Virus record (IMG/VR): IMGVR_UViG_3300037307_000307
Length of the DNA: 64,000 nucleotides
Source of the DNA: a virus
Lineage: Duplodnaviria; Heunggongvirae; Uroviricota; Caudoviricetes
Strand: one strand, 5' to 3'
Shown: positions 13,087-39,754 of the stretch, one piece after another
How positions within the stretch are numbered: the first letter of the stretch is position 1
Layout: every line of letters starts with the position of its first letter
The notes under the pieces: model-generated
Database searches by the model: none
What the model was told of the DNA's origin: nothing
The model's input: the letters and a program-made list of their open reading frames with translations, nothing else
Made by a program: the position numbers and the translations under genes

Positions 13087-13421
13087 TATAATTAGAATAT
13101 CTCCTTACTTATAAACATGGTTTTATTGCTCCTCTCGGTAACTCTTTTGGAAAAATGACTATATGTTTTATATGTGAACCATATTTATAAAGTATTCTAT
13201 TAGCCAAAAAGATTAAATACTACCTTATCCTTAATAAAATATGGAAGTTTGCTACAGTTTAAGTAACAGAATTATGACAACCGTAGCTGCGCCACAATAT
13301 CAGCCGGAAAAACTATCTGGCGGATTTAATTGGGTCGCATAAACTCCCATCGTTTAATTTTAAGACAGATTTTCTATCTCGGCTGACCCGAGTGGGAGAA
13401 CACACTCATTTTCGTTAACAT

Positions 13422-13450
13422 TTGCATGCGCTAATTAATAACGCATGCAA
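13422..13450. promoter_or_regulatory. perfect 9-bp inverted repeat TTGCATGCG-(11 nt AT loop)-CGCATGCAA
   Basis: Read directly; shares the CATGCGC core with the iteron-like cluster at 18180-18300. Confidence 0.4.
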
Positions 13451-13610
13451 TTTATTTTGGGCTCATAGTATAATAGTAGTATATCCGCCTTGCACGCGGA
13501 AGGCAAGAGAGCATAACTCTTTGGGTCCATTCGTCCTCAAACTTCTGTTGCGGGAAGAAGTCAGTTGCTGCAATAACTGCTGGTTAGTTCTGTTTTTGAG
13601 GACATTTTAT

Positions 13611-13682
13611 GAGTCTATAGTTTAATGGCAAAAATATCTCTCTTGTAAAGAGATGATTCCAGTTCAATTCTGGGTAGACTCT
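13611..13682 (+). tRNA. tRNA-Tyr (anticodon GTA)
   Basis: Acceptor GAGTCTA/TAGACTC 7 bp, U8, anticodon stem CTCTC/GAGAG with loop TTGTAAA, T-arm CCAG-TTCAATT-CTGG. Confidence 0.6.
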
Positions 13683-13684
13683 TC

Positions 13685-13755
13685 GGGGTGTTAAGATAAT
13701 GGCAGTCTCCGCCGTTTGGAACGGCGTTGCCCTGGTTCGATTCCAGGATATCCCA
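13685..13755 (+). tRNA. tRNA-Pro (anticodon TGG)
   Basis: Acceptor GGGGTGT/ATATCCC with 2 G-U pairs, anticodon stem CGCCG/CGGCG loop TTTGGAA, T-arm CCTGG-TTCGATT-CCAGG. Confidence 0.55.
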
Positions 13756-13757
13756 TC

Positions 13758-13824
13758 GGGTTGAGGACAGGAGAGTAAGGCGCGACTCGGCGCTGTGGGC
13801 TCCGCGAGTCTTGGCTTCAACCCA
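13758..13824 (+). other. tRNA-like 67-nt element (acceptor-like GGGTTGA...TCAACCC) lacking a canonical T-arm; possible tRNA remnant or atypical structured RNA
   Basis: Perfect 7-bp terminal complement, internal GACTCG...CGAGTC hairpin, GC-rich, sits between tRNA-Pro and tRNA-Gln. Confidence 0.2.
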
Positions 13825-13826
13825 AT

Positions 13827-13899
13827 AGCCTTGTAGTCTAGCGGCCAAGGACTGCGGACTTTGACTCCGCGAACCCAGGTTCGAATCCTGGCGAGGCTA
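13827..13899 (+). tRNA. tRNA-Gln (anticodon TTG)
   Basis: Acceptor AGCCTTG/CGAGGCT, anticodon stem GCGGA/TCCGC loop CTTTGAC, T-arm CAGG-TTCGAAT-CCTG. Confidence 0.6.
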
Positions 13900-13911
13900 T
13901 CGGCTCATAAG

Positions 13912-13980
13912 TTTATCAGGTGAACAGTCCCCTGAAGCGGGAAAGGTACTTTGTGCAATTCAAAGATGAGCCATTTTTAT
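13912..13980 (+). ncRNA. stem-loop element: perfect 7-bp IR GGCTCAT...ATGAGCC enclosing 55 nt, followed by ATTTTTAT
   Basis: Read directly downstream of tRNA-Gln; contains GGGAAAGG; no canonical tRNA arms. Confidence 0.2.
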
Positions 13981-14089
13981 AGCGAGAGATGGTTATGCTC
14001 CATATCTTCTTGCTCATGAGGCAAGTATGCTTCTATTACATCACTCTCGCTGTAGATAGATTTATATGCTGTGAGTGCATAAATAGTTT

Positions 14090-14413: not shown

Positions 14414-14764
14414 ATGAGCGAGTCACAATCTAGATATAGTATCGTTGAACGTTTGACGCAAACCAAACTAGAAATTATTTCTGCAAAATCACAACTAGAC
14501 GCTGATATTACTTCTAAACAACAAGCCACCGATGAAGCTGAACAAGATTTGAAAGATTGGGAAGCTACTGTTAAACAAGAAGTAGAAAGACAAAGAAGAG
14601 AGAAAAAAAGAAATATTGAAAAACTGGGCAGAGAGGCTAAAAATGCATTACAGAGGAAAAAAATAAAAGAGGCGACTTATGATAAAAAAATTGAAGCAAT
14701 AGATACAGCTTTGAATCAAATACAAAAGATTTCTGAAACAAGTTCGTCCGTAACCTCGATTTAA
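14414..14764 (+). CDS. coiled-coil protein
   Basis: Heptad-like charged sequence QLDADITSKQQATDEAEQDLKDWEATVKQEVERQRREKKRNIEKLGREAKN. Confidence 0.45.
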   Translation: MSESQSRYSIVERLTQTKLEIISAKSQLDADITSKQQATDEAEQDLKDWEATVKQEVERQRREKKRNIEKLGREAKNALQRKKIKEATYDKKIEAIDTALNQIQKISETSSSVTSI

Positions 14765-14925
14765 TCTCCATCTCCTACTCATTCATATCGCATAACTAAC
14801 GGATGAGCGTCGACAGTGCACCTAGAAAAAAATGGATGCCATGTGCGCCATGGTGCTACTAATGGTAAAAAAAATACAAAGCCATGTGCTGTATAATATA
14901 GCCGGTTCAATTCCGGTAATCTAAC

Positions 14926-14952
14926 GGGCTGGGCGACCAGCCCTTTTTATTT
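14926..14952 (+). terminator. intrinsic terminator: GGGCTGG-GCGA-CCAGCCC + TTTTTATTT
   Basis: 7-bp GC stem, tetraloop, T-run, read directly; closes the 14.4-14.9 kb transcription unit. Confidence 0.55.
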
Positions 14953-15136
14953 CAAACCATCTTTTTAAACTTTAAACACTATACTTTTTTGGAGATTGAC
15001 TTAAAGGTTGCGGGCGGCGAAGTTTACCTCTTTTCTTCGCCGTCCACTTCAATCAACAATATTCATTGAGAGGAACTTGGTTGCCATTTAAATGAATCCG
15101 AGAAGCGAAAGCAAATGGCCGTTTGGAAAACCTTAA

Positions 15137-15586
15137 ATGGACCAAGTGTTTATCATATTCATGTCCAAGAGAACGAAGTTGATAGAAAGATTACTTCAAG
15201 CTTTAAGAGAAAAAGCTCCTCTGAGCACGAACAAAGGAAAATTTATTTCAACACCACATTATATTTCTAGAAAAGATAAAAGACATAGTGGTTGGGTTAC
15301 TCCTGGATTTCCTAAAAATCCTGGAATGAAATATCAAGAAGCTGTTGCTAATGCAATGGAGCCTCAAGATTTTTATGATGATTGGAAGGATTGGCGCGAT
15401 GGACAAAGAAATTATTTCAAAGATGCCTCTCATTTTAAAAAAGGAATGTCGAAGAAAAAGTTTGATAGTCCATACATGAAAGAATGGATGAAGCCAGAAC
15501 ACGTAAATAAAAAATTGAGAAAAGAATTATACATTAGAAGAGCTAGTAAGCTTAAGAGAACAGAAAATATCTCAAACGAACAATAA
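15137..15586 (+). CDS. basic hypothetical protein
   Basis: 149-aa ORF, K/R-rich, W-rich (DWKDWRDGQRNYF). Confidence 0.4.
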   Translation: MDQVFIIFMSKRTKLIERLLQALREKAPLSTNKGKFISTPHYISRKDKRHSGWVTPGFPKNPGMKYQEAVANAMEPQDFYDDWKDWRDGQRNYFKDASHFKKGMSKKKFDSPYMKEWMKPEHVNKKLRKELYIRRASKLKRTENISNEQ

Positions 15587-15929: not shown

Positions 15930-18708
15930 GAATTCATATCGCATCACTAAAGAAGAAAGAGATAAGATAAATAGTTTAGAAGATATTAAAAAAGATGATT
16001 ATATTTACGAGATATGTAAAAGAGAAGGAACGACATATACAAAAATTCTAGCACAATTACAAGAACCACAAGAGCTTATTGAAAAAGAGAAAATTGAAGA
16101 AGATAGAAAAGAAGAGTCTGAACATGAAATAGATATTGAAGATTTGCAACCAGTTGATTATGATAAAAGAACTTTGAAGGTAAATATACTCGACATATTT
16201 AAACCAGGAGTAGATGATATGACTTTAACTTCTAGCGGAAATTATAAAATGATATGTCCTGATTGTGGTTTACAAGGCGGAAGAACTGAAGGTTTTATTG
16301 TATATCCTGAATCTAATCAAGCTTCTTGTCACTCATCTGGAAAATGGTTTAAAGTTTTAGAAGCCTATGCTTTGAAAAAGAAATTGATTAGATGTTTAGA
16401 TGGAAGAGAACCAGGTGAAAAAGATAAAAAAGTTTTAGGTGGAGAATTATGGACGCAAACATTACTTGAATTCAAGGATGAATATGGTGTAGATAGATTT
16501 AATGATTTATGTGAAGATTGGGGAATTAAAAAAAGATTACAAATACCTGGTAAGTTCAGACTTCAATCAGCATTTGCCGATGATGCTGCAAAAATATTCT
16601 GTAGTAGAAATTTATTATTTTTAAGAGCTGAATCCGGAAATATAATAAAAATAAAAGTTACTAAAAAAGTTGATAAAGATAATGATGAAAAAATGCTTAC
16701 AATAGAGAGAGGAATTGAGGAATTAACTCCTGAAGAATTTGTGACTCTTTTAGAATTATATGTAGACCCTTATATGAAAACATATTACAAAGACGGAACA
16801 TTTCAAGAGGCTCCATATTCTATAAATAAGGAAACTGCTGGAATAACATTAGCTAGTCCTAATTTTAGATTTAAAATGCCTCCATTGGAAAGAATATTTG
16901 ATATTCAAATTCCGATTGTTCATAAAGGTAAATTAACATTTCCTAAGAAAGGATATGATAGAAGATTTGCAAGTTATCTTCCACCAAATGCTCCTAAAAT
17001 AAGGCCGAATGTATATACAGTTCAAGATGCAAAAGACTTCATTGAAGGAATATTTCAAGAATTTTGTTTTAAGGATAGAAAAGATTTCATGCACGCTCTT
17101 GCTGCATTCATAACTCCGTTCTGCAGAGGTTTATTCTCAAAGTTCTCTGTGAGAACTCCGGTATTTATCTATATGGCAAATAGAGAAAGAGCCGGTAAAG
17201 ATTATTTGGCCGGATGTACTGGTATGTTATATGAAGGAGTCGCGACAGAACAACCGCCAATATCAACAGATGAAAAGGGTGGATTTGGTAATAGTAACGA
17301 AGAATTGAGAAAGAAAATAACATCTTGTATGATTGAAGGGAAGAAAAGATTTCACTCTAGTAATAATAAAGGATTGTTAAATAATAGCGTACTAGAAAGC
17401 GCAACCACTTTGGATACATGGGAAGATAGAGTTCTTGGAAGAAATAAAACAATAAATTATCCAAATGAAATGGAATATAGTTTGTCTGGAAATATAGGTA
17501 TGAGTTTGACACCAGACCTTGTTAATAGAGCGAGAGTTATAGATTTAGAGTTGACCATAGAAGATGCTAATTCAAGAGTTTTTAAGAATCCAAGATTGCA
17601 CGCATGGATTCTTGATAATAGAGAAAGTATAATTTCTGCATTATATGCAATAGTCAAACACTGGTGGGAAAATGGGGCTAAACCTGGAAAGGTTCCTTTC
17701 ACTAGTTTTCCTGAATGGTCTGAAGTTGTTGGAGGAATAATGGAATCAGTTGGATGGGACAATCCTTGCACCAAAGATGAAGTTACAGTTATTGCGCTTG
17801 ACCAGGAAACTGATGAAATGAAAATATTGTTTGAAACAGCATATGAACAGAAACCAAATACATGGTTGAATCTTGGAGAATTGCAAGAGATAGTTGAAAA
17901 AGATGATATAATGCCGGATTTGGATTTAAAGAATAAGTCAGACCAGATAAAGTTTGGCAAATTAATTGCAAAATATGGTAATAGAATTCTATCTGATATT
18001 ACTATGTATGTTAAAGATAATAAACAAAGTCAAAGAAGAAAATACAAATTTAATAAGTCTCTACTGGCCCAAGAAGCTGATAAAGAAACTATAATTGATA
18101 AAGATAATAAAGAAAGTATAATTGATAAAAAGAATGAAGAAGTTAAAGAAAATTTGACAGAAAGTGAAAAAACTGACCAAAAAGTGCGCATGTTGCCCAT
18201 GTTTGCGCATGTTTCTACTCCGTCACATGATAGAAAATTGGAATTCATACCATACAGCGATACAAAAACATGCGCAGATATGCGCAACATGCGCACCCCC
18301 CTCACCCAGCCTGAAACATCAATTAAAACAACTATACTGAGCAAAGATGTTGTCCGGGAAGACTTGGAAAACATCCCCAAACATCCCCACCCCTCCACTT
18401 CCACTGGAAAGCCATTGGATTACTATACAAAGAAGATGGCTGTGGCCAAACAAGAAGAAATTGATAAAAGACTCAAAAAGGTCAGAAGCGAAAGAGAGCT
18501 CCAATTCTGGGAAGACCCACAGTGCGCAAGTATTGTAGCGCAATGTACAAGAGAGCAAACGCTTGAGTATGTTAAAGCCAATCCAAAGTCTTCCTATGAA
18601 AAGATTAGACTTGCACTTGGACTTGGAAGTTCAAAATGGCTGGTAGAACTTGCAAACGAAGGTTTAATAAAAAGAAACGATGATGAAAGTTGGGAGATAG
18701 TTATATAA
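15916..18708 (+). CDS. large replication protein, putative primase/helicase-like (zinc-binding N-region, degenerate P-loop-like region, C-terminal wH-like domain)
   Basis: ATG at 15916 (METIKNSY...) after ggtgaagagg; CPDCG...CHSSG zinc motif; VFIYMANRERAGKDYLAGCTG P-loop-like; stop overlaps PolB start (TAATG). Confidence 0.45.
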   Translation: METIKNSYRITKEERDKINSLEDIKKDDYIYEICKREGTTYTKILAQLQEPQELIEKEKIEEDRKEESEHEIDIEDLQPVDYDKRTLKVNILDIFKPGVDDMTLTSSGNYKMICPDCGLQGGRTEGFIVYPESNQASCHSSGKWFKVLEAYALKKKLIRCLDGREPGEKDKKVLGGELWTQTLLEFKDEYGVDRFNDLCEDWGIKKRLQIPGKFRLQSAFADDAAKIFCSRNLLFLRAESGNIIKIKVTKKVDKDNDEKMLTIERGIEELTPEEFVTLLELYVDPYMKTYYKDGTFQEAPYSINKETAGITLASPNFRFKMPPLERIFDIQIPIVHKGKLTFPKKGYDRRFASYLPPNAPKIRPNVYTVQDAKDFIEGIFQEFCFKDRKDFMHALAAFITPFCRGLFSKFSVRTPVFIYMANRERAGKDYLAGCTGMLYEGVATEQPPISTDEKGGFGNSNEELRKKITSCMIEGKKRFHSSNNKGLLNNSVLESATTLDTWEDRVLGRNKTINYPNEMEYSLSGNIGMSLTPDLVNRARVIDLELTIEDANSRVFKNPRLHAWILDNRESIISALYAIVKHWWENGAKPGKVPFTSFPEWSEVVGGIMESVGWDNPCTKDEVTVIALDQETDEMKILFETAYEQKPNTWLNLGELQEIVEKDDIMPDLDLKNKSDQIKFGKLIAKYGNRILSDITMYVKDNKQSQRRKYKFNKSLLAQEADKETIIDKDNKESIIDKKNEEVKENLTESEKTDQKVRMLPMFAHVSTPSHDRKLEFIPYSDTKTCADMRNMRTPLTQPETSIKTTILSKDVVREDLENIPKHPHPSTSTGKPLDYYTKKMAVAKQEEIDKRLKKVRSERELQFWEDPQCASIVAQCTREQTLEYVKANPKSSYEKIRLALGLGSSKWLVELANEGLIKRNDDESWEIVI
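18180..18300. promoter_or_regulatory. clustered GC-rich iteron-like repeats: 2x GCGCATGTT, then ~60 bp later inverted 2-3x (A)ACATGCGC(A)
   Basis: gtgcgcatgttgcccatgtttgcgcatgttt ... aacatgcgcagatatgcgcaacatgcgcac read directly inside the 3' part of the replication gene. Confidence 0.45.
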
Positions 18709-20549
18709 TGGCAAACTTTAATAAAAAATCCATATTAATTTATGATATCGAGACGGATTCTTTAGATATTCAAACCGCAAATATGAAATGGTTTGGAGCT
18801 TACAGTTATTTGAAAGATAAATATTATTGGTATCAATTTCCACAAGATAAGAAAGAAATTATAAGTTTGATAGAGAGTCATAAGGTTCTTGTAGGATTTA
18901 ACATAAAAGATTTCGATAATGAAATAATCGAAGCAAACCTTAAACTAGAGGAAAACATATTTGAGTATAAAGTTTTAGTCGACTTGTTAGAAATATCCGC
19001 TCCAAAGGCAGGTAAGAATTATGGAGCCCATAGAAAGAATAGATTGACTATGATGGGTTATAAGTTAAAAAATTATACTCTTAAAAATATAATAGAGCTT
19101 TTGAAATTGGATAAGGATATAGGAAGTAAAGGAGATATAGATTATAATATATTCAAGAAAGAAACGTTGACAAAAGAAGAAATAGATGAAATAATAAAAT
19201 ATCTCAAACAAGATATTGATTTAACAAAATTACTTTTTGAATGGTATGAAGAACAATATGAGCCATTAAAGAAACTTCTTCCTACAAAAGAACAAAACAA
19301 TTTCCTATATCTAAAATCAAGTTTAGCAGTTCTTGCTTATAATATAATATGTAATAAAGCAGGACTTCCTGTCGTATATACTGATAAAACAAAGAGTAAC
19401 GAATCTTATTCAGGAGGACATCATATTGAACCCGCCCATGAATTGGTTAAAGGTAATATAATAGAAGTAGATTTTACTAGTGCATATCCTCACGCAATTA
19501 TGATGGGTAATTTGTGTTCACCTGCAAAGGAAAATGAAAAATATTGGGATGGAAATAATTATTACAAACTTGATGGCAAATATAATAAAGACACACAAGG
19601 AAAAATTGAAACAGCTCTAAAGGAAATATTTCTTGAAAGATTGAAAGCTAAGAAAGAGAAAGACATTCCAAAAGATAAATCATATAAAATAGTTATCAAC
19701 AGTTTCTATGGTGCACTTGGTAATCCAGTATTCAAATCAATATATAATAGAAACAGTGCGTCTGACACAACTTCAATTGTTAGAACTTGGATGAAGAAAC
19801 TTGCTAAGAGTTTGGCTGAAGCAGGTTATGAATGTTTATACGGATTTACAGATTCTATCTTCATAAAAATACCAGATAAATTAAATAAAAAAGATGCTAT
19901 GAAAGAGATTGACTTATTCTTAAAAGAAGCTTTGGATAATATGCCTTTTCCAATGGATACTTTCAAAATGGGAATTGAAGAAGAAATTAAAATGATTTGG
20001 TTTGTAGCAAAGAACTGTTATTTGTTCGTAACTCAAGATGATAAGGTAAAATACAAATCTACTCTTTTGAATACAAATACTCCAGCGGCAGTTATGAAAT
20101 TGTTTGAAGAATATATGAAGCCTATAATTATACAGAAACTTGACATTCCTTTTACATATAAAGAACTTGAGCAACAATTAAAATTAGTTATTGAAAAAGA
20201 TATTTCTTTGGCAGCACAGGAACATAAAGTAACAGAACTGAGTGAATATAAATCTCACACATCTTTACAATATCAAATATCTGAAAAACATGGTGAAGGA
20301 AGACACTTATTAATACCTAACAGAAAAGGAGTTGGAGTCGGTCTTAGTAAACATACTAAAAAGAAAGCAGGAGTAAGACATTGCACTATAAAAGAATTCA
20401 AGGACAATAATCTAACAATATCAGATATTGATTTAACTCATCTTCTATCTCACCTCAAACCTTTCTATGAACGTAATGATGAAGCAAAGAAACAACAGAA
20501 AATACAAAGACAAACGTTGTTGCGAGAAATGCAAACAATATATGGATGA
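18708..20549 (+). CDS. polB: family-B DNA polymerase with 3'-5' exonuclease domain
   Basis: ExoI LIYDIETDS, ExoII FNIKDFDNEII, ExoIII YLKQDID; pol motif A DFTSAYPHAIM, motif B KIVINSFYGALGN, motif C YGFTDSIFI. Confidence 0.8.
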   Translation: MANFNKKSILIYDIETDSLDIQTANMKWFGAYSYLKDKYYWYQFPQDKKEIISLIESHKVLVGFNIKDFDNEIIEANLKLEENIFEYKVLVDLLEISAPKAGKNYGAHRKNRLTMMGYKLKNYTLKNIIELLKLDKDIGSKGDIDYNIFKKETLTKEEIDEIIKYLKQDIDLTKLLFEWYEEQYEPLKKLLPTKEQNNFLYLKSSLAVLAYNIICNKAGLPVVYTDKTKSNESYSGGHHIEPAHELVKGNIIEVDFTSAYPHAIMMGNLCSPAKENEKYWDGNNYYKLDGKYNKDTQGKIETALKEIFLERLKAKKEKDIPKDKSYKIVINSFYGALGNPVFKSIYNRNSASDTTSIVRTWMKKLAKSLAEAGYECLYGFTDSIFIKIPDKLNKKDAMKEIDLFLKEALDNMPFPMDTFKMGIEEEIKMIWFVAKNCYLFVTQDDKVKYKSTLLNTNTPAAVMKLFEEYMKPIIIQKLDIPFTYKELEQQLKLVIEKDISLAAQEHKVTELSEYKSHTSLQYQISEKHGEGRHLLIPNRKGVGVGLSKHTKKKAGVRHCTIKEFKDNNLTISDIDLTHLLSHLKPFYERNDEAKKQQKIQRQTLLREMQTIYG

Positions 20550-23090: not shown

Positions 23091-24692
23091 TCAATTGGAT
23101 TTAGACATTCCATTTATAATTTGTTTTGCAACATAATGTGCACTTCCAAATATTATTATTCCTGGAATAACCGCAATTCCCGCCCCAACAAGTACTGCTG
23201 GAGCCAACAATGTAGATGATATCGTGGCAAGAGAACCAAATCCTAATGATTCAAGCATACTGGCTGCTTCGTGGGTTTTCTTTTCAATTCCTTTTTCAAG
23301 AGCATCTATTTGCATAACTATTTTTCCGTTTTGCCATATTCTAACTTTTTTATCTTCTTCTGAAGTTAGAAAAACTTTGTTTCCATTTAGAGAAGCAGTG
23401 TATGCTGCCGAATTACCTGTAATAAATATTTTATTTTTTCTTCTAGCTATAACTGTATTATTATTATTAGTTGTTGGACAGAATACTATTCCATTGTATT
23501 TTTTCTCCTTTATCTCATTTCTAAAAACGTTACATTCATTGAATCTATTAATATTTGTTTTATAATATCCTTTTGAATCAATATATGTATTTGAATTTCT
23601 ATTTAATAAGATACAAAGTGTTTTAAAAAAATCTAGTCTTTTTTTGTTTTGAGTTCTTATATCTCCTTCCCAATTTTTATTACGTTTGTGCCCATCTCCT
23701 AACATCATTGAATTATATATCTCTTGTAATTCCTCTCCTTTTAATTCAAATATAGAATGTTTAGGTGTTCTATCAATATTAATAAAATCAAAAATCCATT
23801 TAGAATCTTTTGAGAATATTCTAAATTTACAATATCTTTTTAATTTACCATCGTAAGGTGAAAGTTGATTATATATATTCTTTGAAAATGTTAAGCCACT
23901 GGATACCAAAGTATCTTCTATTATTTTACATTTGTTTTTATTTGCTGTAAAACTTTGAACTATTTCTATAGATTTATCTCTTTTACTAATATAAGCATCA
24001 GATAAAACCCATCCTAAAATAGAAGCTTTTATTTTCCCAATACTTTTACCATTTTTTTTAAAAGAAGATAATTTATGTTTTGTTTTAATTTTTTCGGATA
24101 TTTGATTATAAGGAATTAATTTGTAATTATTATAGATAATTTTTCTGGAGTCTCCTTTTCCAATTCTCTTTCCAATCTTAACGAGCCCTTTATGTTCATT
24201 TGTTACAATGAAATCTAAAAATCTATTTTTAATATGAAAAACCTTTTCATTGATTTTATCAATGAAAATATCTTTAATCTTATCTTCCTCTATAATATCT
24301 TTTTTTAAATTATAGTTTAAGATTATATCTCCTTTGTTCAAATCTTTATATCTCTTCCAACCTTTTATTGTCAATATTTCAGTATCAGAACTTAAACAAT
24401 GTCTTGTACCATATCCTGTAAGAGTTTGAACATTTTTAATATTCATTCCATATCCAATCATTTCTCCTTGAGGATTAACAATACAAGCACCGTCGAGTAA
24501 CGCAAGTGCTTCAGCTCTTCTTTCAGAACCAATTATATTAAACTTAACAACATCTTGAGGAAACAAAGGTTCATATTCAATCGGTTTGTCCATTAGAACA
24601 ATTAAACAACCTTTGTTATTCTTTGCTATTTTTAAGCAGATATCAATTAAAGTTTTTTCAATTTCATTTGTCATAGTATATGTAAATAACAT
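23091..24692 (-). CDS. diadenylate cyclase (DAC/DisA_N domain, c-di-AMP synthase-like) interrupted by an intein; C-terminal membrane anchor
   Basis: N-extein LLDGACIVNPQGEMIGYG...LTGYGTRH | C-extein SAAYTASLNGNKVFLTSEEDKKVRIWQNG matches the DGA and GTRHRAA...VSEETG DAC signatures; C-terminal TM LATISSTLLAPAVLVGAGIAVIPGIIIFG. Confidence 0.65.
   Translation of the reverse strand: MLFTYTMTNEIEKTLIDICLKIAKNNKGCLIVLMDKPIEYEPLFPQDVVKFNIIGSERRAEALALLDGACIVNPQGEMIGYGMNIKNVQTLTGYGTRHCLSSDTEILTIKGWKRYKDLNKGDIILNYNLKKDIIEEDKIKDIFIDKINEKVFHIKNRFLDFIVTNEHKGLVKIGKRIGKGDSRKIIYNNYKLIPYNQISEKIKTKHKLSSFKKNGKSIGKIKASILGWVLSDAYISKRDKSIEIVQSFTANKNKCKIIEDTLVSSGLTFSKNIYNQLSPYDGKLKRYCKFRIFSKDSKWIFDFINIDRTPKHSIFELKGEELQEIYNSMMLGDGHKRNKNWEGDIRTQNKKRLDFFKTLCILLNRNSNTYIDSKGYYKTNINRFNECNVFRNEIKEKKYNGIVFCPTTNNNNTVIARRKNKIFITGNSAAYTASLNGNKVFLTSEEDKKVRIWQNGKIVMQIDALEKGIEKKTHEAASMLESLGFGSLATISSTLLAPAVLVGAGIAVIPGIIIFGSAHYVAKQIINGMSKSN
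23412..24398 (-). mobile_element. intein (~329 aa) with LAGLIDADG-type homing-endonuclease motifs, inserted after GTRH of the DAC motif
   Basis: Block A CLSSDTEILTIKGW directly after extein His; LAGLIDADG-like ILGWVLSDAYISKRDKS and MMLGDGHKRNKNWEGD; ends ...IFITGN followed by +1 Ser. Confidence 0.55.
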
Positions 24693-25023
24693 TTTTATAA
24701 AAAAGACAAAGTTTATATATTTAATGCTCTACATTGAAAAATGAACAAAAACAGAGCATATTTCTTATATCCTAGGCAATACCAGGTCGGGCCCTCTAGT
24801 AATATGGCCAATGGTTTCGGTAATTTCTTTGGAAATTACGCTCTGCCATCATTGAGCATCCCTGGTATTGCCACCTTCTATTCCATCAAACGTAATGGGT
24901 TTGAACACCAATTTATTCCCATAAGCGGTCACTAACTTAAAGCTACGATGCCACTGAGGTGTACGTGTTAGTGCATCACCTTATTGATGGATAAATCGCA
25001 AGTCGCTTTGCGGTTTTGTACAA

Positions 25024-25790
25024 TCATATTCAAAGCAAAGCATGGCGCGTTTAGGCAAATGTCTTGTGAGGCGATGTGAGGCAAGGTAATCATATTCACT
25101 TGGCTATCTCTGGCGGGGCAGATTCAGGATAGGACAGGCCAGGCGACGTAAGGTAAGGATTTCATATTCATTGGCGCGGCTATTTTAGGCGTGGCGCGGA
25201 CTCGTCTTGTTGGGTCTGGTAATGTAGCGCTGGGCGGAGTAAGGTTTGGTTTAAGGTTTGGCAAGGAATCATATTTATGTGGTTCGTTTTGGTCGTTCAG
25301 TGCGAGGCGCAGTCAGGAATGGTGGGGCAAGGATTCATAGTCATTCGTGACGACAGGTACTATTCGGTCCCGGACTCTTTGCGACTCTTCGGAGTGGAGA
25401 GAAATGATGGTGACCACTTAACCTGTTTCAATATCATATTTATTTGGTTAGGTAAATCTCGGAGTGGGCCTTGTCGGGCGTTGTTGGGTCGGGCAGTTGT
25501 ATCGCTAGGAGGGGTTAGGTATGCTGGGCACGGTTCAAGGTTTGGCAAGGAAATTAATTTCATATTCCTTGGTCCGTTTTGGTAAGGTCAATTTTGGTGA
25601 GGCCGCGTAATGTTTGGTGCGGGATTGCGAGGTTCTGCACGGCGGGGTTTGTTGGGGCCGAAGAAGGAAAGGTTTGAGCTAAGGCAAGGAACTCAAATTC
25701 ATATTCATTTGGTACGGTCCGGAGCCGGCGAGTTTCGGTCAGGTTAGTTGAAGTACGGAAAGGTAAGGAAATCGTATTCAAACCATGTTT
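25024..25790 (+). repeat. tandem array of ~8 GC/G-rich island units (box TCATATTCAyTTGG; variable 50-125 nt GG-periodic body; 3' (A)AGGyAAGG(A)A), same family as the 5 dispersed copies at 0.4-3.2 kb
   Basis: Boxes at 25024, 25090, 25162, 25269, 25335, 25434, 25560, 25699, 25772 (spacings 66-139 nt); GGCAAGG/GGTAAGG immediately before each box; strong G-over-C strand bias; no ORF conservation. Confidence 0.65.
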
Positions 25791-25816
25791 ATAAACATCA
25801 AAACACTAATGTTTTT

Positions 25817-35865: not shown

Positions 35866-36016
35866 AAGTAAGTGCTGTAATGCAAGAGTAATACCTGACT
35901 ATACTGAGTTCAACGAAGATAATAAAGACTATACTCCTGAGAGATTAAAATGTGTAAGATGCGGGAAACCTGTTACTGAAGTTATAATTTCTCGACGTAA
36001 AACACGATTAAGATAA
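35846..36016 (+). CDS. zinc-ribbon small protein (56 aa, not in track)
   Basis: MNLSEFRSKCCNARVIPDYT...LKCVRCGKPVTEV. Confidence 0.3.
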   Translation: MNLSEFRSKCCNARVIPDYTEFNEDNKDYTPERLKCVRCGKPVTEVIISRRKTRLR

Positions 36017-36090
36017 ACAATATAATAAAACATATGAAAGTTTAAATACTGAATCCACTTTCATATAATAATCCAAAATGAGGATGGAAA

Positions 36091-36393
36091 ATGAAAATGA
36101 GCGCGGTTAAATCAGGTCAAACAGGAAAAACAGGAATGGAAGAAAAAATAGTGGAATGGGCTGAAAAATATAAAAAAGATTTGTTTAATTCTTATACCCA
36201 TGATGCTTGGAAATATTTTGATTATGAAGATTTGAAAATGCATCCAATGTGGAATGGCTACAAATGTTCTAAATGTAAATCAATGTGTGCTCTAAAAAAT
36301 AAAGAAGGACTATGTGTTAAATGTCTTGTTATTAAAGAGAAGATTGATGTTATCGAAAAAATGCTTAAACAAATGAAAGGAGGTAATAATTAG
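36091..36393 (+). CDS. zinc-binding protein
   Basis: CSKCKSMCALKNKEGLCVKC. Confidence 0.4.
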   Translation: MKMSAVKSGQTGKTGMEEKIVEWAEKYKKDLFNSYTHDAWKYFDYEDLKMHPMWNGYKCSKCKSMCALKNKEGLCVKCLVIKEKIDVIEKMLKQMKGGNN

Positions 36394-36395
36394 AA

Positions 36396-36857
36396 ATGGA
36401 AACACTTACTGGAATGCCAGAACCAAATATTGATATTTCATCATTGAAGCCTGTAAAGAGTGGAGAGCCTATAGATTTAAAGAGATTTCATAACACTCAA
36501 GTAGAAATAAGTGAAATGAAAGTACTTCAAGTTAATTCTAGCTTTACTCAAAAAGGACCTGATGGTCAAAATCTAAAGCAATGGGTATTGAAAGTTTCTT
36601 CGCCAGTTCTTCTTACTGTAGGAGAGGGCGATACAAAGATAGAGATTAGAGCTAGCGAGTTATTTAATCTTTCACAAGACAAAGAAGGAAAGCTCACCGG
36701 ATATCCTCAAAATAAAGATTCAAATCTTGTTAAATTTATGAAGGATGTTGGAGCTACAACATTGGAAGATTTAAAAGGAAAAAAGGCCACAGTTAAACAC
36801 TATGAGAAAGATATTGGTGAAGGCCAAACTAGAGGATATTTGAAATTCAAATATTGA
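36396..36857 (+). CDS. hypothetical beta-rich protein
   Basis: 153-aa ORF, SD gaaaggaggtaataattagaaATG. Confidence 0.4.
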   Translation: METLTGMPEPNIDISSLKPVKSGEPIDLKRFHNTQVEISEMKVLQVNSSFTQKGPDGQNLKQWVLKVSSPVLLTVGEGDTKIEIRASELFNLSQDKEGKLTGYPQNKDSNLVKFMKDVGATTLEDLKGKKATVKHYEKDIGEGQTRGYLKFKY

Positions 36858-36911
36858 TAAACAAAATTTATTATTTTTTTTTTTATTTATTATTTTAACA
36901 TATAACATATT

Positions 36912-37265
36912 ATGAAATTAGAAAAAATTAGCATAGCAAATGTAATAACTTCGATTATATTAATCATAGTCGGAGTTCTATTATTGAACGCGGGATGTAA
37001 ATATACAAATCATATTTTAAATGAATTAGATAAGAATTGTAAGACTTGTTCTATATTTGATAAGGACTGTCCATATACAGATGAAGAATTGTTGGAGCAA
37101 GAATATGGAGATAATCCTTATTGTAGAGATATGGGAGTATATGAAATGAGATTCAAAGTATTCGGAGGAGGAATGTTAGGAGTTGGAATGATGTTTATGA
37201 TAATGGGCATGATTATGTTCTATAAAGAATTTAATAAACCCACGAAGAGAGGTCCAGCAGTATAG
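36912..37265 (+). CDS. membrane protein
   Basis: VITSIILIIVGVLLLNAG and GGGMLGVGMMFMIMGMIMFY helices. Confidence 0.45.
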   Translation: MKLEKISIANVITSIILIIVGVLLLNAGCKYTNHILNELDKNCKTCSIFDKDCPYTDEELLEQEYGDNPYCRDMGVYEMRFKVFGGGMLGVGMMFMIMGMIMFYKEFNKPTKRGPAV

Positions 37266-37741
37266 ACCACCAAACGTCCCTTCCTGGGAAAAAAGAGGTG
37301 ATACTATATTATAGTAATACTATTATTTATATCTTTCGTTTAAAGGAAATATATTCAAAATAATGTCATATTTATTTGTCGTCGACAAATTATTCTAATA
37401 AGGTCATAGTAAATCATTACTCGACGTTAAATCGTTGATTATAGGGCATTTGTGAGGGCCGAAAAATCTAAATAGCCTTATTTCTTAGCAAAAACACTCA
37501 TATTTTATAAAAAGTGTGCTTACCCCTATGACCACTTTGCGGACCCGAGCTTGATTCGTTAATGAATCTTTTTCATCGGCGTACTGTGATTGTAAGCACA
37601 CTTTTTAAACATCATTTATCCTTATAAAGATGGTTAGCATTTTTTCCTGACTGGCACAAAATAATAATATTTATTAACCTAGACTTTGTTCATAACTAAT
37701 GCGTCGCCGACGCACACACATAAATATTGAGATATAAAGAG
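37266..37741. promoter_or_regulatory. 460-bp non-coding palindrome-rich region (candidate replication origin / control region)
   Basis: TTTGTCG-T-CGACAAA (37375-37389); 15-bp IR AAAAAGTGTGCTTAC (37509-37523) / GTAAGCACACTTTTT (37593-37607); GCGTCGcCGACGC (37701-37713); TCATATTTATTTG box at 37366. Confidence 0.4.
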
Positions 37742-38257
37742 ATGACTAATTTAATATTCGACACAGAGACTACAGGACTTATGGATAATCTTATTGAAAG
37801 AATAATATGTATCTGTGTTCATAATACTGAAACGAAAGAAAACAAATGTTTTATAGGTGAAGATGAATCTCAAGTGTTAAAAGATTTCTTTGACTATATA
37901 TCAAAAATACAATCTCCAAATTTAATAGGATATAATATCGACTCCTTTGACCTCCCTTTCGTGGTTAGGAGAGCCGTTGTCCACAAGAAAAGAATTCCGT
38001 GGTTTACTTCCACTGACCTTAGAAAAGTGGCCAATGGTTTCAAATATTCATGGAATAGACAAGAAAAAGGAAGATTGAGAGATTGGGCAAATATACTTGG
38101 AATGCAAGTAGATACTTCTCCCGGTTCTGAAATGTTCAAATTATATTCTGAGAAAAAGTTTGCTGAAATAGAAAGGCATTGTATAGAAGATATCGAGATA
38201 ACTAAAAAATTATACGAGCATGTAGAAGCAACCGGATTATTGAACGGTGGCAGATAG
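37742..38257 (+). CDS. DnaQ-like DEDDh 3'-5' exonuclease
   Basis: ExoI LIFDTETTGL, ExoII IGYNIDSFDLPFV, ExoIII HCIEDIEITKKLY; track start 37727 is TTG, ATG at 37742 preferred. Confidence 0.65.
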   Translation: MTNLIFDTETTGLMDNLIERIICICVHNTETKENKCFIGEDESQVLKDFFDYISKIQSPNLIGYNIDSFDLPFVVRRAVVHKKRIPWFTSTDLRKVANGFKYSWNRQEKGRLRDWANILGMQVDTSPGSEMFKLYSEKKFAEIERHCIEDIEITKKLYEHVEATGLLNGGR

Positions 38258-38323
38258 ACCACCATATTTAAAAATACGAAGTCTCTAATAGATTTGAGTG
38301 AGGTAATTTATAATTAGCTAAAT

Positions 38324-38536
38324 ATGAAATTTGAAAAGATAATAGGAAAAAAAATAATTCTGTATACTAAAAAGAATTTTAGATTTCAAGGAGAGGTAAA
38401 AGATTTTGATGGACAGTTCATAGAGATTTTTGATGAATTAAAAAATAAACCAAAGATGATAAACATAAATGAAATAACTGAATATGAAATAGATGAACCG
38501 AATGATAATAGGTATAACAGCTTATATAAACAATGA
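38324..38536 (+). CDS. hypothetical protein
   Basis: 70-aa ORF. Confidence 0.35.
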   Translation: MKFEKIIGKKIILYTKKNFRFQGEVKDFDGQFIEIFDELKNKPKMININEITEYEIDEPNDNRYNSLYKQ

Positions 38537-38554
38537 AAATGAAGGAAATGAAAG

Positions 38555-38854
38555 ATGGCAAGATATTATAGGTTTAATAAAATAGACCCAAGAAAAAAAC
38601 ATCTCTACATTAGATGTTGCAGAAGATGCGGGCTATATTATAAAACAGAAACAAAAAATTCGAAAGTATGCTGGGAATGTAACCAGGGATACGGGATGGA
38701 CTATTGGAGAAAAAAATATCGAAATCAACAATTGGGAAAAAAGGTAGGGCTGCCGGAAAAAGATTTGAAGCGCAAGTCCGTAAAGACCTCGAAAAAGATA
38801 ATTGGATTGTTGTCAAATGGACGAACCAAATCGACTTCACAACGAATAAAATAA
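38555..38854 (+). CDS. zinc-ribbon protein; only the first ~54 codons likely genuine, probably fused by -1 frameshift to the Hjc ORF
   Basis: CCRRCG...CWECNQGYG; K-rich low-complexity tail overlaps 38704..39111 by 150 nt; A AAA AAA slippery heptamer at 38710-38716. Confidence 0.35.
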   Translation: MARYYRFNKIDPRKKHLYIRCCRRCGLYYKTETKNSKVCWECNQGYGMDYWRKKYRNQQLGKKVGLPEKDLKRKSVKTSKKIIGLLSNGRTKSTSQRIK

Positions 38855-39111
38855 TTCCAGCTAAAAATAAATTTAACCCATTTCTAGGAAGAGTTATGTC
38901 GGAAGGTTCCGGCTTTCCAGATTTCTTAGCTTACAAACTTCTTAACATTGGAACATATGAAATAATTGGAGTGGAAAGTAAACTTGGTAAATATCTAGAT
39001 ACTGAGGAAAAAAAGAAAGCACAATGGCTTGTTGACCATAAAATATTCAAGAAAATACTCGTAGCATATAAACCCCAAAGAGGTGAAATCAAATATGAAG
39101 CAGTCTGCTAA
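38704..39111 (+). CDS. hjc: Holliday-junction resolvase, Hjc/RecU-like PD-(D/E)xK nuclease
   Basis: GKRFEAQVRKDLEKDNWIVVKW (G..ERel...L...Gf.v.R) then GFPDFLAY ... IIGVESKLGKYLDTEEKKKAQWL (PD ... E.K ... Q.L); track start is TTG. Confidence 0.55.
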   Translation: MEKKISKSTIGKKGRAAGKRFEAQVRKDLEKDNWIVVKWTNQIDFTTNKIIPAKNKFNPFLGRVMSEGSGFPDFLAYKLLNIGTYEIIGVESKLGKYLDTEEKKKAQWLVDHKIFKKILVAYKPQRGEIKYEAVC

Positions 39112-39409
39112 AAATATCATAGTAAGGAATTGGATTCGAGAACAAGGATGTGATGGATTTGCCGCTTTTGATTTTAAAAATAAAGAAGTTATATTATATG
39201 ACGGAAGTTTCTTCTCTATAAAAAAGAAAATAAAAATTCATAGAAAAAGAAGAAAGGCTGAGTTTGGAAAGGATATCAAGGTTAACAAATTAGCTTGTAC
39301 ATTTTTATTTGATTCTATCGACGAGACAATAGATTATTTGAAAAAGACTAAATCTTTTTTAAACAAGTTAGGTTATAAAACTTCAGGTATTAAAACAAAA
39401 GGTTTATAA
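39083..39409 (+). CDS. hypothetical basic protein
   Basis: 108-aa ORF. Confidence 0.35.
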   Translation: MKSNMKQSAKNIIVRNWIREQGCDGFAAFDFKNKEVILYDGSFFSIKKKIKIHRKRRKAEFGKDIKVNKLACTFLFDSIDETIDYLKKTKSFLNKLGYKTSGIKTKGL

Positions 39410-39448
39410 TATGGATATACTTGAAATTAATAAGGTAGATAATTAGAT

Positions 39449-39754
39449 ATGGTAACACTTTGTAATCCGATGAGTTGCGCAGGTTTTGGAACAGACTTTC
39501 TTGGAGGATGTTCAATGTTCTGGATTGCTATGGTTATTCTTTTTTTCGTAATAGTTCTTTCTAGAAGATGGGTTGCAGAAGCTATAGGCATGCCATGGTC
39601 AAATATAGGAGCCTTTGGTTTAGGATTCTTAGCTATGATTGTCGTTGGAGTATTAACATGCTCCCATAAATTTGCTCTAGGAGCCGGAATAATCGGAGCT
39701 TATGTTGGAGCTTATTTCGGAGGCTTCATTGATGGAAGCGGGAGCGGATACTAA
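39449..39754 (+). CDS. membrane protein with Gly-rich C-terminus
   Basis: FWIAMVILFFVIVL and LGFLAMIVVGVL helices; GAGIIGAYVGAYFGGFIDGSGSGY. Confidence 0.45.
   Translation: MVTLCNPMSCAGFGTDFLGGCSMFWIAMVILFFVIVLSRRWVAEAIGMPWSNIGAFGLGFLAMIVVGVLTCSHKFALGAGIIGAYVGAYFGGFIDGSGSGY

Follow-up and report, generated by a model that had tools for sequence, protein, structure and literature searches.

A probable small structured RNA gene upstream of a polymerase-type exonuclease gene in an uncultivated tailed virus

The DNA analyzed here (the window) is a 64,000-nucleotide stretch of the virus record IMGVR_UViG_3300037307_000307, classified in the Caudoviricetes. It is virus-like, has a GC content of 32.6% and is rich in small genes on the + strand. 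Its landmarks include a family B DNA polymerase (PolB) gene at 18708-20549 with a primase/helicase-like gene before it, several tRNA genes at 13.4-14.0 kb, and a minus-strand open reading frame (ORF) of 6546 codons. The subject of this study is an intergenic gap at 37266-37741, which according to the ORF lists lies between the gene for a 117-aa membrane protein and a gene for a stand-alone exonuclease, and which probably holds a gene for a small structured RNA. No ORF of at least 40 aa is listed on either strand within 37266-37726. A preliminary description of the locus had given the gap a length of 460 bp and had called it the longest non-coding gap among the + strand genes; measured to the exonuclease ATG at 37742 it is 476 nt long. 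With a crude gene call based on ATG starts only, a single gap bounded by + strand genes is longer (1328-1864), and this one is overlapped by mechanical ORFs of 40-83 aa on both strands. The gap at 13.1-14.1 kb is longer still, but it bears tRNA genes.

The three palindromes reported for the gap are all present, with small corrections to their coordinates and lengths. The largest, described as a 15-bp inverted repeat with 69 nt between its arms, is in fact a perfect repeat of 16 bp, with arms TAAAAAGTGTGCTTAC (37508-37523) and GTAAGCACACTTTTTA (37592-37607) and a spacer of 68 nt. It is the sole inverted repeat of at least 14 bp with a spacer of at most 150 nt in the whole 64 kb, and inverted repeats of 16 bp or more were found in none of 100 dinucleotide shuffles. 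The repeat is not a chance product. The 13-bp palindrome GCGTCGcCGACGC at 37701-37713 can be lengthened to TGCGTCGcCGACGCA (37700-37714). About nine short GC-rich palindromes, this one among them, occur in the window; it ends 27 nt before the exonuclease ATG. The third palindrome, TTTGTCGtCGACAAA (37376-37390), is located inside a block (37374-37475) that is kept only in the four closest genomes. A consensus fold of this block was obtained without covariation support, and the block was consequently dropped as a candidate second structured RNA. A box like those of a G-rich array elsewhere in the window is also present, as had been described: TCATATTTATTTG at 37366-37378 has a second exact copy at 25434 and near-copies at 25090, 25162, 25269 and 25699, within the array.

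Syntenic loci (L numbers below) were collected by fetching the contigs of exonuclease homologues and by scanning metagenomes. The exact exonuclease protein was found on one other assembly, where the aligned stretch corresponding to 37200-37800 is identical, and 19 homologues were found at 40-75% identity. An element bounded by the repeat could be recognized upstream of the exonuclease gene in 12 distinct genomes. Among the five closest genomes, nucleotide identity reached a peak of ~0.8 over 37506-37595, a value that matches the coding sequence of the exonuclease and clearly exceeds the flanks; at the start of the gap (37266-37355) mean identity was 0.01-0.12, and this part is essentially unconserved. 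A covariance model of the element gave 12 matches of 58-104 bits, one per genome and each upstream of the exonuclease gene. A second copy in the window was not detected, nor was any copy in L007/L008, L013 or a more distant clade.

The element matches no family in Rfam 15, which was searched with cmscan (4227 families, at gathering and at permissive thresholds) using the window, the gap and six relatives. The best E-values were 0.84 for the gap and 0.36 for the loci of the relatives, both located off the element, and no gathering score was reached at the element. Annotated phages showed no DNA match for 36000-39500 and no match to the PolB, and a search of IMG/VR recovered neither the exonuclease nor the RNA pattern. 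The pattern was matched 19 times in unrelated GTDB bacteria, but these matches were taken as chance, the best of them reaching 20 bits (E = 0.08) with the covariance model.

Conservation of base pairing was assessed in an alignment of 11 sequences over 25 pairs, distributed among three helices named P1, Pa and P2. Standard pairs occupied 92.3% of the cells, compared with 33-52% in slid controls, in which the 3' partners were shifted by 1-3 columns, and 15 pairs had changed on both sides, compared with 2-5 in the same controls. None of 500 shuffles reached any of the five observed measures, and RNAalifold independently recovered P1, Pa and P2. Judged by these substitutions, the element is a base-paired structure and not a pair of binding sites.

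The helices are described here for an RNA read from the minus strand. The closing helix P1 is formed by a 3'-side RNA arm at 37514-37523 and a 5'-side arm, GUGUGCUUAC, at 37592-37601. Its pairing is kept in alignment columns 10-18 / 97-105 with two-sided changes at five of the nine pairs, e.g. C-G to U-A in 4 of the 11 sequences and A-U to G-C or U-A; the inner pairs occur as GCTTAC/GTAAGC, GCTTGC/GCAAGC, ACCTAC/GTAGGT and GCTCAC/GTGAGC. Helix Pa (CAC on the + strand, 37533-37535) pairs with GTG at 37586-37588. All of its cells are paired (100%), and two of its three pairs show two-sided changes, from CAC/GTG to TAC/GTA, CAT/ATG or GAC/GTC. Helix P2 (CCCGAG on the + strand, 37544-37549) pairs with CATCGGCG at 37574-37581 and is 93.9% paired, with two-sided changes at three of six pairs (variants CCGA/TCGG, CTGA/TCAG and CCAA/TTGG). 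It encloses a variable terminal hairpin, P3 (37553-37557 / 37564-37568), whose sequence and length vary but which, as read from the alignment, always forms. An asymmetric internal loop houses invariant single-stranded motifs, on the + strand TTTGC (37536-37540) and GYGTNCT. The former belongs to ACTTTGC at 37534-37540 (GCAAAGU in the RNA), where the AC preceding the invariant TTTGC is nearly invariant as well (alignment A4).

The composition of the element also sets it apart, with 41% GC compared with 30% in the rest of the gap, and 45.6% in the 68 nt between the arms compared with 32.6% in the window. A raised GC content is typical of structural RNA genes in AT-rich genomes. K-turn, C/D-box and H/ACA layouts were compared by eye and none of them fits; a CUGUGA motif proved to be part of helix Pa. 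No reading frame is conserved over the element, as frames, stops and start codons differ among the relatives. A 38-codon minus-strand ORF at 37485-37601 was rejected as a small protein: its start codon varies (GTG, ATG, CTG, TTG), frame shifts and early stops occur (LCLQS* in L109, VYLHVTAH* in L005), and the element measures 92, 93 and 94 nt in the closest genomes, so that the frame is broken. A mini-ORF from the ATG of TAATGCG is not conserved either.

The genes that head gene runs in the window are preceded by a box, CCAT(A/G)TTTA(A/T)(A/T)AA, and internal genes have GGAGGT upstream. In four genes the distance from the end of the box to the ATG is exactly 22 nt, and these were for this reason taken as leaderless. 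Such a box-to-ATG pattern is shown by archaeal promoters of the B recognition element (BRE)/TATA type with leaderless transcripts. Together with the tRNA-Tyr genes of the relatives, which are 73-75 nt long and of the short-variable-arm type, the promoter pattern indicates that the host is probably an archaeon; short-arm tRNA-Tyr is found in archaea and eukaryotes, and the long-arm type in bacteria.

A position matrix was built from seven strong promoter-like boxes of the window and used to score ~128,000 positions. The best non-training match in the window was the minus-strand 20-mer GCTAACCATCTTTATAAGGA at 37619-37638 (15.9 bits, rank 8 of ~128,000), which contains the promoter-like box assigned to the small RNA, CCATCTTTATAAG (37621-37633, minus strand). 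On the + strand, no site in the gap scored above 6 bits. In 10 of 12 relatives, exactly 19 nt separate the minus-strand box from the conserved P1 hexamer (counted by hand in the window itself), and the sequence of this spacer is unconserved. By the 22-nt rule, the RNA would start at ~37599, a G at the edge of P1.

The other end of the element is marked by T-runs. On the minus strand, 8 of 11 relatives have a run of at least four T within 12 nt past the stem, compared with 4 of 11 on the plus strand; archaeal RNA polymerase terminates at oligo-T. Farther along, GAAAAATCTAAATA at 37461-37474, which reads TATTTAGATTTTTC on the minus strand, is conserved in the window, L002, L108, L005, L010, L014 and L109, and this oligo-T is likely a back-stop terminator of the RNA. 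The same place, read as GAAAAATCTWWAAA, was considered as a + strand promoter of the RNA and rejected, because the motif shows no enrichment in the window and its spacing from the stem ranges over 33-70 nt. The RNA gene thus has sequence signals for a promoter and a terminator of its own. The minus strand, both ends and expression of the element at all are inferred. The predicted RNA is ~91-93 nt long and spans 37509-37601, with its 5' end placed at 37599-37601 and its 3' end in the U-run encoded by 37509-37513. In the relatives the corresponding lengths range from 76 to 102 nt. The fold of the minus-strand RNA has a predicted energy of -26.3 kcal/mol (z = -3.0).

The exonuclease gene has a promoter-like box of its own, TAATATTTATTAA at 37665-37677 on the + strand, whose core TTTATTAA is kept upstream of the gene in 10 of 14 genomes examined. 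The two boxes stand back to back ~31 nt apart and make up a divergent promoter region. A hairpin follows ~20-24 nt past the box in most box-bearing relatives. Its sequence differs between them (GCGCggtGCGC, GCGCaattgaaGCGC and TCTAAAAAttaTTTTTAGA according to folds; GCCAAatTTGGC in L015, read by eye), and in the window it corresponds to the GC palindrome TGCGTCGcCGACGCA. This palindrome is best read as a hairpin right at the beginning of the exonuclease transcript, or else as an operator that overlaps the start.

Taken together, we consider that the gap probably contains a small structured RNA gene not described before. It would lie on the minus strand and diverge from the PolB-type exonuclease gene with its promoter and 5' hairpin leader. 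Transcription from the box at 37621-37633 would start at ~37599-37601, run leftwards across the conserved element and end at the U-run (encoded by 37509-37513), yielding a non-coding RNA of ~91-93 nt. This would form one long rod, built in order from P1 (~9-10 bp in the RNA), the 3-bp Pa, the conserved asymmetric internal loop, P2 and the variable P3, and followed by a single-stranded tail with terminal U's. The 16-bp repeat would then represent P1 with its flanking A/T runs, which could stop transcription in both directions. The box at 37665-37677, ~45 nt farther to the right, would drive the exonuclease gene on the + strand, its transcript beginning at the GC hairpin (37700-37714) with a leader of ~40 nt and with AAAGAG between the hairpin and the ATG. 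The term "regulatory hub", used in the preliminary description, is thus loosely correct, since a pair of back-to-back promoter-like boxes, a conserved structured element and, at the predicted exonuclease start, a hairpin all lie in the gap.

Our best guess for the small RNA is a stable, trans-acting molecule that is built into a ribonucleoprotein by way of its U-tail and conserved internal loop. A role as antisense RNA to the exonuclease start codon was considered because of a 10/12 match seen by eye in the window, but it was abandoned as the match is not kept in the relatives. A duplex-energy scan found no target complementarity of the small RNA, and the exonuclease start was average in that scan (-18, against a mean of -18.7).

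One candidate for the RNA partner is a protein encoded by the virus itself. The gene after that of the exonuclease, at 38324-38536 (+), codes for a 70-aa protein predicted to have an Sm/Hfq-like fold, and it has a strong promoter-like box of its own at 38262-38274. The structural model of the protein (predicted local distance difference test score, pLDDT, of 82.8) consists of a helix (H3-6) and five strands, in line with the N-terminal helix and bent five-stranded sheet of the Sm/Hfq fold. Its fold matches in the PDB are mostly Hfq, with template modeling (TM) scores of 0.65-0.68 and root-mean-square deviations of 1.6-2.0 Å. Two homologues were named small nuclear ribonucleoprotein (snRNP)-like by JGI, and matches to Pfam LSM14, DUF6897 and NCBIfam MM0924 were all below the cut-offs. 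Sm/Hfq-like proteins bind U-tailed, stem-closed RNAs. A pairing of the small RNA with this protein is a speculative prediction to which we attach little confidence.

Several observations weigh against the small RNA gene or against parts of the scheme. The twelve sequences are closely related, the effective sequence number of the covariance model being 2.5, and the power to detect covariation is consequently modest; several pairs never vary. The structural evidence is hence best described as good but not overwhelming. Columns 3-8, which hold the repeat's outer A-T pairs, show some two-sided changes as well; with a start at 37599, these pairs would not be part of the RNA. G-U wobble counts are neutral with respect to the strand (9 versus 9 overall, 7 versus 5 in the core), so the strand assignment depends on the transcription signals, which do discriminate. 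The element is missing in L007/L008 and L013, although their exonucleases are 63-66% identical, and it must therefore be dispensable or replaceable. Nor does it always occur together with the Sm-like gene: both are present in eight genomes, the RNA alone in two, the Sm-like gene alone in one, and neither in three. Finally, the archaeal host assignment is founded on motifs and the length of tRNA-Tyr, not on a taxonomic match.

The gap had previously been called origin-like, and a function of the element as DNA was weighed in three forms: a replication origin, a single-strand initiation signal for the viral primase-helicase, or a protein-bound cruciform. A structured single-stranded DNA signal would also show covariation in its stems, a replication exonuclease gene adjoins the element, and an internal origin may exist somewhere in this genome given the primase/helicase-like protein and the PolB, whose nearest solved relatives are the replicative PolBs of Thermococcales. 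Nearby there are repeated TCGAC boxes and an 81% AT stretch at 37300-37399. This stretch (19% GC), the sole very AT-rich one, is however unconserved, and the sequence between the arms does not resemble an unwinding element, because it is GC-richer than the window, conserved, and marked by compensatory changes. No tandem or iterated repeats were found in the gap, where short repeats occur in two copies only, fewer than the three or more initiator boxes of an iteron array. Cumulative GC skew rises steadily from ~24 to ~43 kb and turns only where gene orientation flips, with no inflection at 37.5 kb; as skew here follows the direction of transcription, this test is a weak one. T-runs and a promoter-like box at a constant distance of 19 nt belong to a transcription unit, the replication genes lie 17-22 kb away beside another structured gap (14764-15137), and close relatives retain the exonuclease gene without the element. 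The origin is thus not supported, and we regard a DNA-level function as rather improbable. Protein-primed replication, with origins at the genome ends, was likewise found to be unsupported, considering that the nearest solved polymerases are archaeal (Thermococcales) family B enzymes and that a primase/helicase-like gene precedes the PolB gene; some PolB homologues do, however, also match PF03175.

If the structured RNA were read on the + strand, it could terminate the upstream operon or form its 3' end, or it could act in cis as a leader of the exonuclease gene, in the manner of a riboswitch or by binding a protein. Every neighboring gene is on the + strand, the + strand fold is more stable (-34.6 kcal/mol, z = -5.75) than that of the shorter minus-strand RNA, the wobble counts are neutral, and a T5 follows the stem on the + strand too in the window, L002, L108 and L109. 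Such + strand T-runs are nevertheless limited to 4 of 11 relatives, L015 having an A-run instead, and no + strand promoter-like site in the gap exceeds 6 bits; the candidate + boxes read from the alignments lie 33-70 nt or 0-33 nt from P1, with no fixed spacing. Regulation by read-through is unlikely, since a conserved box of its own precedes the exonuclease gene and is separated from the element by runs of T5 and T6. We thus consider a + strand RNA unlikely, though to be kept in mind. A perfect repeat flanked by A5 and T5, and T-runs on both strands in the closest relatives, might suit a mere bidirectional terminator or insulator between the upstream operon and the exonuclease unit, with no stable functional RNA. 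For that function the conserved 68-nt interior, the invariant loop motifs and two further covarying helices would be superfluous, a promoter-like box at a fixed distance would not be needed, and archaeal termination requires oligo-T and not a hairpin; the chance that the element is no more than this is slight. Terminal inverted repeats around ~70 nt, with mobile genes clustering nearby (IS200/605 in L109, HNH genes and integrases), are reminiscent of a miniature inverted-repeat mobile element or its remnant. Since the element is single-copy in the window, has no further copies in any locus searched, and occupies the same syntenic place in 12 genomes while diverging along with them, we give this explanation almost no credence.

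The gap just upstream of the primase/PolB module, at 14764-15137, has features of its own. There, GGGCTGGGCGACCAGCCC (~14926-14948) is a GC hairpin with T5 after it, the site that ranks second among the non-training promoter-like sites of the window lies at 14952-14971 (+), and a sequence resembling a tRNA T-arm, GCCGGTTCAATTCCGG, occurs near 14901. This gap is a better place than 37.5 kb to seek an origin, an attachment site or another RNA.

The gene at 37742-38257 (+) encodes a stand-alone 3'-5' exonuclease of 171 aa, which profiles, motifs and predicted fold assign to the PolB-exonuclease type. It had been introduced as a DnaQ-like DEDDh exonuclease with a perfect FDTETTG motif. The motif is present at residues 6-12, and the four acidic residues and the histidine are invariant; the family assignment has to be changed. 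Pfam matches were obtained to PF13482 (6e-14), PF10108 (3e-11) and PF03104 (1e-9), all above their curated cut-offs (52.7 bits against 22, 43.9 against 24 and 38.7 against 23). PF00929 (DnaQ/RNase T) was absent among the Pfam matches at E ≤ 0.01, and the NCBIfam epsilon model scored 15.5 bits against a cut-off of 245. Residues D7, E9, N65, F69, D70, H146 and D150 are invariant in 19 sequences, so that Exo I (DxE), Exo II (NxxxFD) and the acidic residue of Exo III are all in place. Motif III is H146-x3-D150 and aligns with the Y-x3-D (YLKQD) of the PolB of the window, with His replacing the Tyr of Exo III. Foldseek searches with the AlphaFold2 model (pLDDT 88) gave archaeal PolB exonuclease domains as the top matches (TM 0.70-0.78), among them 5mdn (TM 0.78, E 6e-8), compared with TM 0.53-0.54 for structures of DnaQ domains.

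In a sister clade (L016 3-1690, L017 1-1580 and L021 2-1064) the exonuclease gene is found immediately downstream of the PolB gene, with perhaps one small ORF between them in L021. The proteins of this clade share 61-66% (PolB) and 44-47% (exonuclease) identity with those of the window. This arrangement supports a role in replication, and the most likely function of the exonuclease is in DNA replication or repair, together with the PolB of the virus. It is not simply a missing proofreader, because the PolB retains an intact exonuclease domain with the motifs DIE, NIKDFD and YLKQD. The earlier idea of an Orn-like enzyme that degrades linear dinucleotides such as pApA, in connection with a cyclic di-AMP (c-di-AMP) enzyme at 23-24 kb, found no support, given the position of the sister-clade gene directly after PolB and a diadenylate cyclase (DAC) score below the cut-off for the supposed c-di-AMP enzyme. 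The latter, a 533-aa protein encoded at 23091-24692 (minus strand), scored 21 bits with the DAC profile (residues 20-98; cut-off 27). It also has a PHROG match annotated as thymidylate synthase, and its function is uncertain.

Separate exonucleases are known from other viruses. The "DNA polymerase exonuclease subunit" genes of phages (PHROG 403 and 192; split polymerases of T7-like cyanophages) likewise encode a DEDD 3'-5' exonuclease of ~170-200 aa in a virus with its own polymerase. The cyanophage subunits are 25-28% identical to the exonuclease of the window, in agreement with the PHROG matches. In contrast to them, the polymerase here belongs to family B and has an intact exonuclease domain, and motif III carries His in place of the PolB Tyr. 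DnaQ (epsilon) and Orn (DEDDh RNase T, PF00929) share the RNase H-like DEDD fold and a histidine general base with the present protein, but differ from it in having H-x4-D and not H-x3-D, a PF00929 match, and a TM score lower than that of PolB.

Further observations concern the surroundings of these genes. The stop codons of the 117-aa gene and of the exonuclease gene are each followed by an identical sequence, TAGACCACCA (at 37263-37272 and 38255-38264), and the one after the exonuclease gene continues into the promoter-like box that precedes the Sm-like gene. The G-rich array mentioned above (25000-25800) is punctuated by TCATATT(C/T)A(C/T)TTG boxes, and L007/L008 carry a like array (L007 5300-5620) upstream of the exonuclease gene, where other genomes carry the small RNA element. 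Clusters of tRNA genes (Tyr, three Leu, Ser) occur in the intergenic zone of the small RNA in L108 (822-1426), L005 (4599-5098) and L006 (4439-4937). In the window, a permissive Rfam search gave six tRNA-like matches at 13100-14050, including 13459-13529, 13902-13973 and 13981-14050 on the minus strand, of which region ARAGORN reported only three tRNAs; a strong promoter-like box (13179-13191) lies ahead of the cluster. Mobile genes were found near the locus in L109/L110 (408-1945), L006 (4887-5285), L007 (6677-7453) and L112 (1469-2251). They comprise IS200/605 TnpA and TnpB genes inserted upstream (L109), HNH endonucleases, and a tyrosine integrase directly after the exonuclease gene. A second element with a long-range stem is present at 24775-24872 (+), where GGCAATACCAGG and CCTGGTATTGCC surround three hairpins (-40 kcal/mol, z = -4.07). 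It sits inside a doubtful 64-codon ORF beside a divergent promoter region, and may be another structured RNA.

Among known systems, the predicted RNA can be compared with the small RNAs bound by Hfq or Sm proteins, i.e. the Hfq-dependent small RNAs of bacteria and the RNAs bound by archaeal Sm-like proteins. With these it would share a length of ~90 nt, a promoter of its own, a stable terminal helix and a 3' tail with a terminal U-run, all predicted here, and a gene for an Sm/Hfq-like fold is located 0.7 kb from the RNA. Unlike the proteins of those systems, the viral protein shows no clear sequence signature of the canonical Sm1/Sm2 or Hfq type and has no sequence match in the PDB. The pRNA of phi29 and phage-borne Y-RNA-like RNAs are similar in being rods of ~100 nt with their own ends paired, occurring once per genome and, as in some relatives here, near tRNA genes. 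They differ in that cmscan with families that include these RNAs returned nothing over the element better than E = 0.36 in the window and six relatives. Archaeal or viral replication origins, with origin recognition box (ORB) inverted repeats around an AT-rich unwinding element or with iterons, resemble the locus in the inverted repeats, the long intergenic region and the nearby replication-related gene; the enclosed sequence here differs in being GC-richer than the genome, conserved and base-paired, with neither repeated boxes nor a change in skew.

These findings also correct the annotation of the locus: it should not serve as an origin, and the exonuclease is to be regarded as a paralogue of the PolB-type exonuclease and not as DnaQ or Orn. 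Very few non-coding RNAs of archaeal viruses are known, and the RNA predicted here, backed by covariation, matches no Rfam family. With a predicted promoter, start and stop, and with conservation in a dozen metagenomic genomes, it is directly testable. As a tentative and rather doubtful extension, a lineage of uncultivated, probably archaeal viruses may encode its own small-RNA system, in which a ~90-nt U-tailed RNA and an Sm/Hfq-like protein, placed around a replication exonuclease gene, would reprogram the stability or translation of host or viral RNA during infection. Such a virus-borne RNA-protein pair, if shown, would be unusual.

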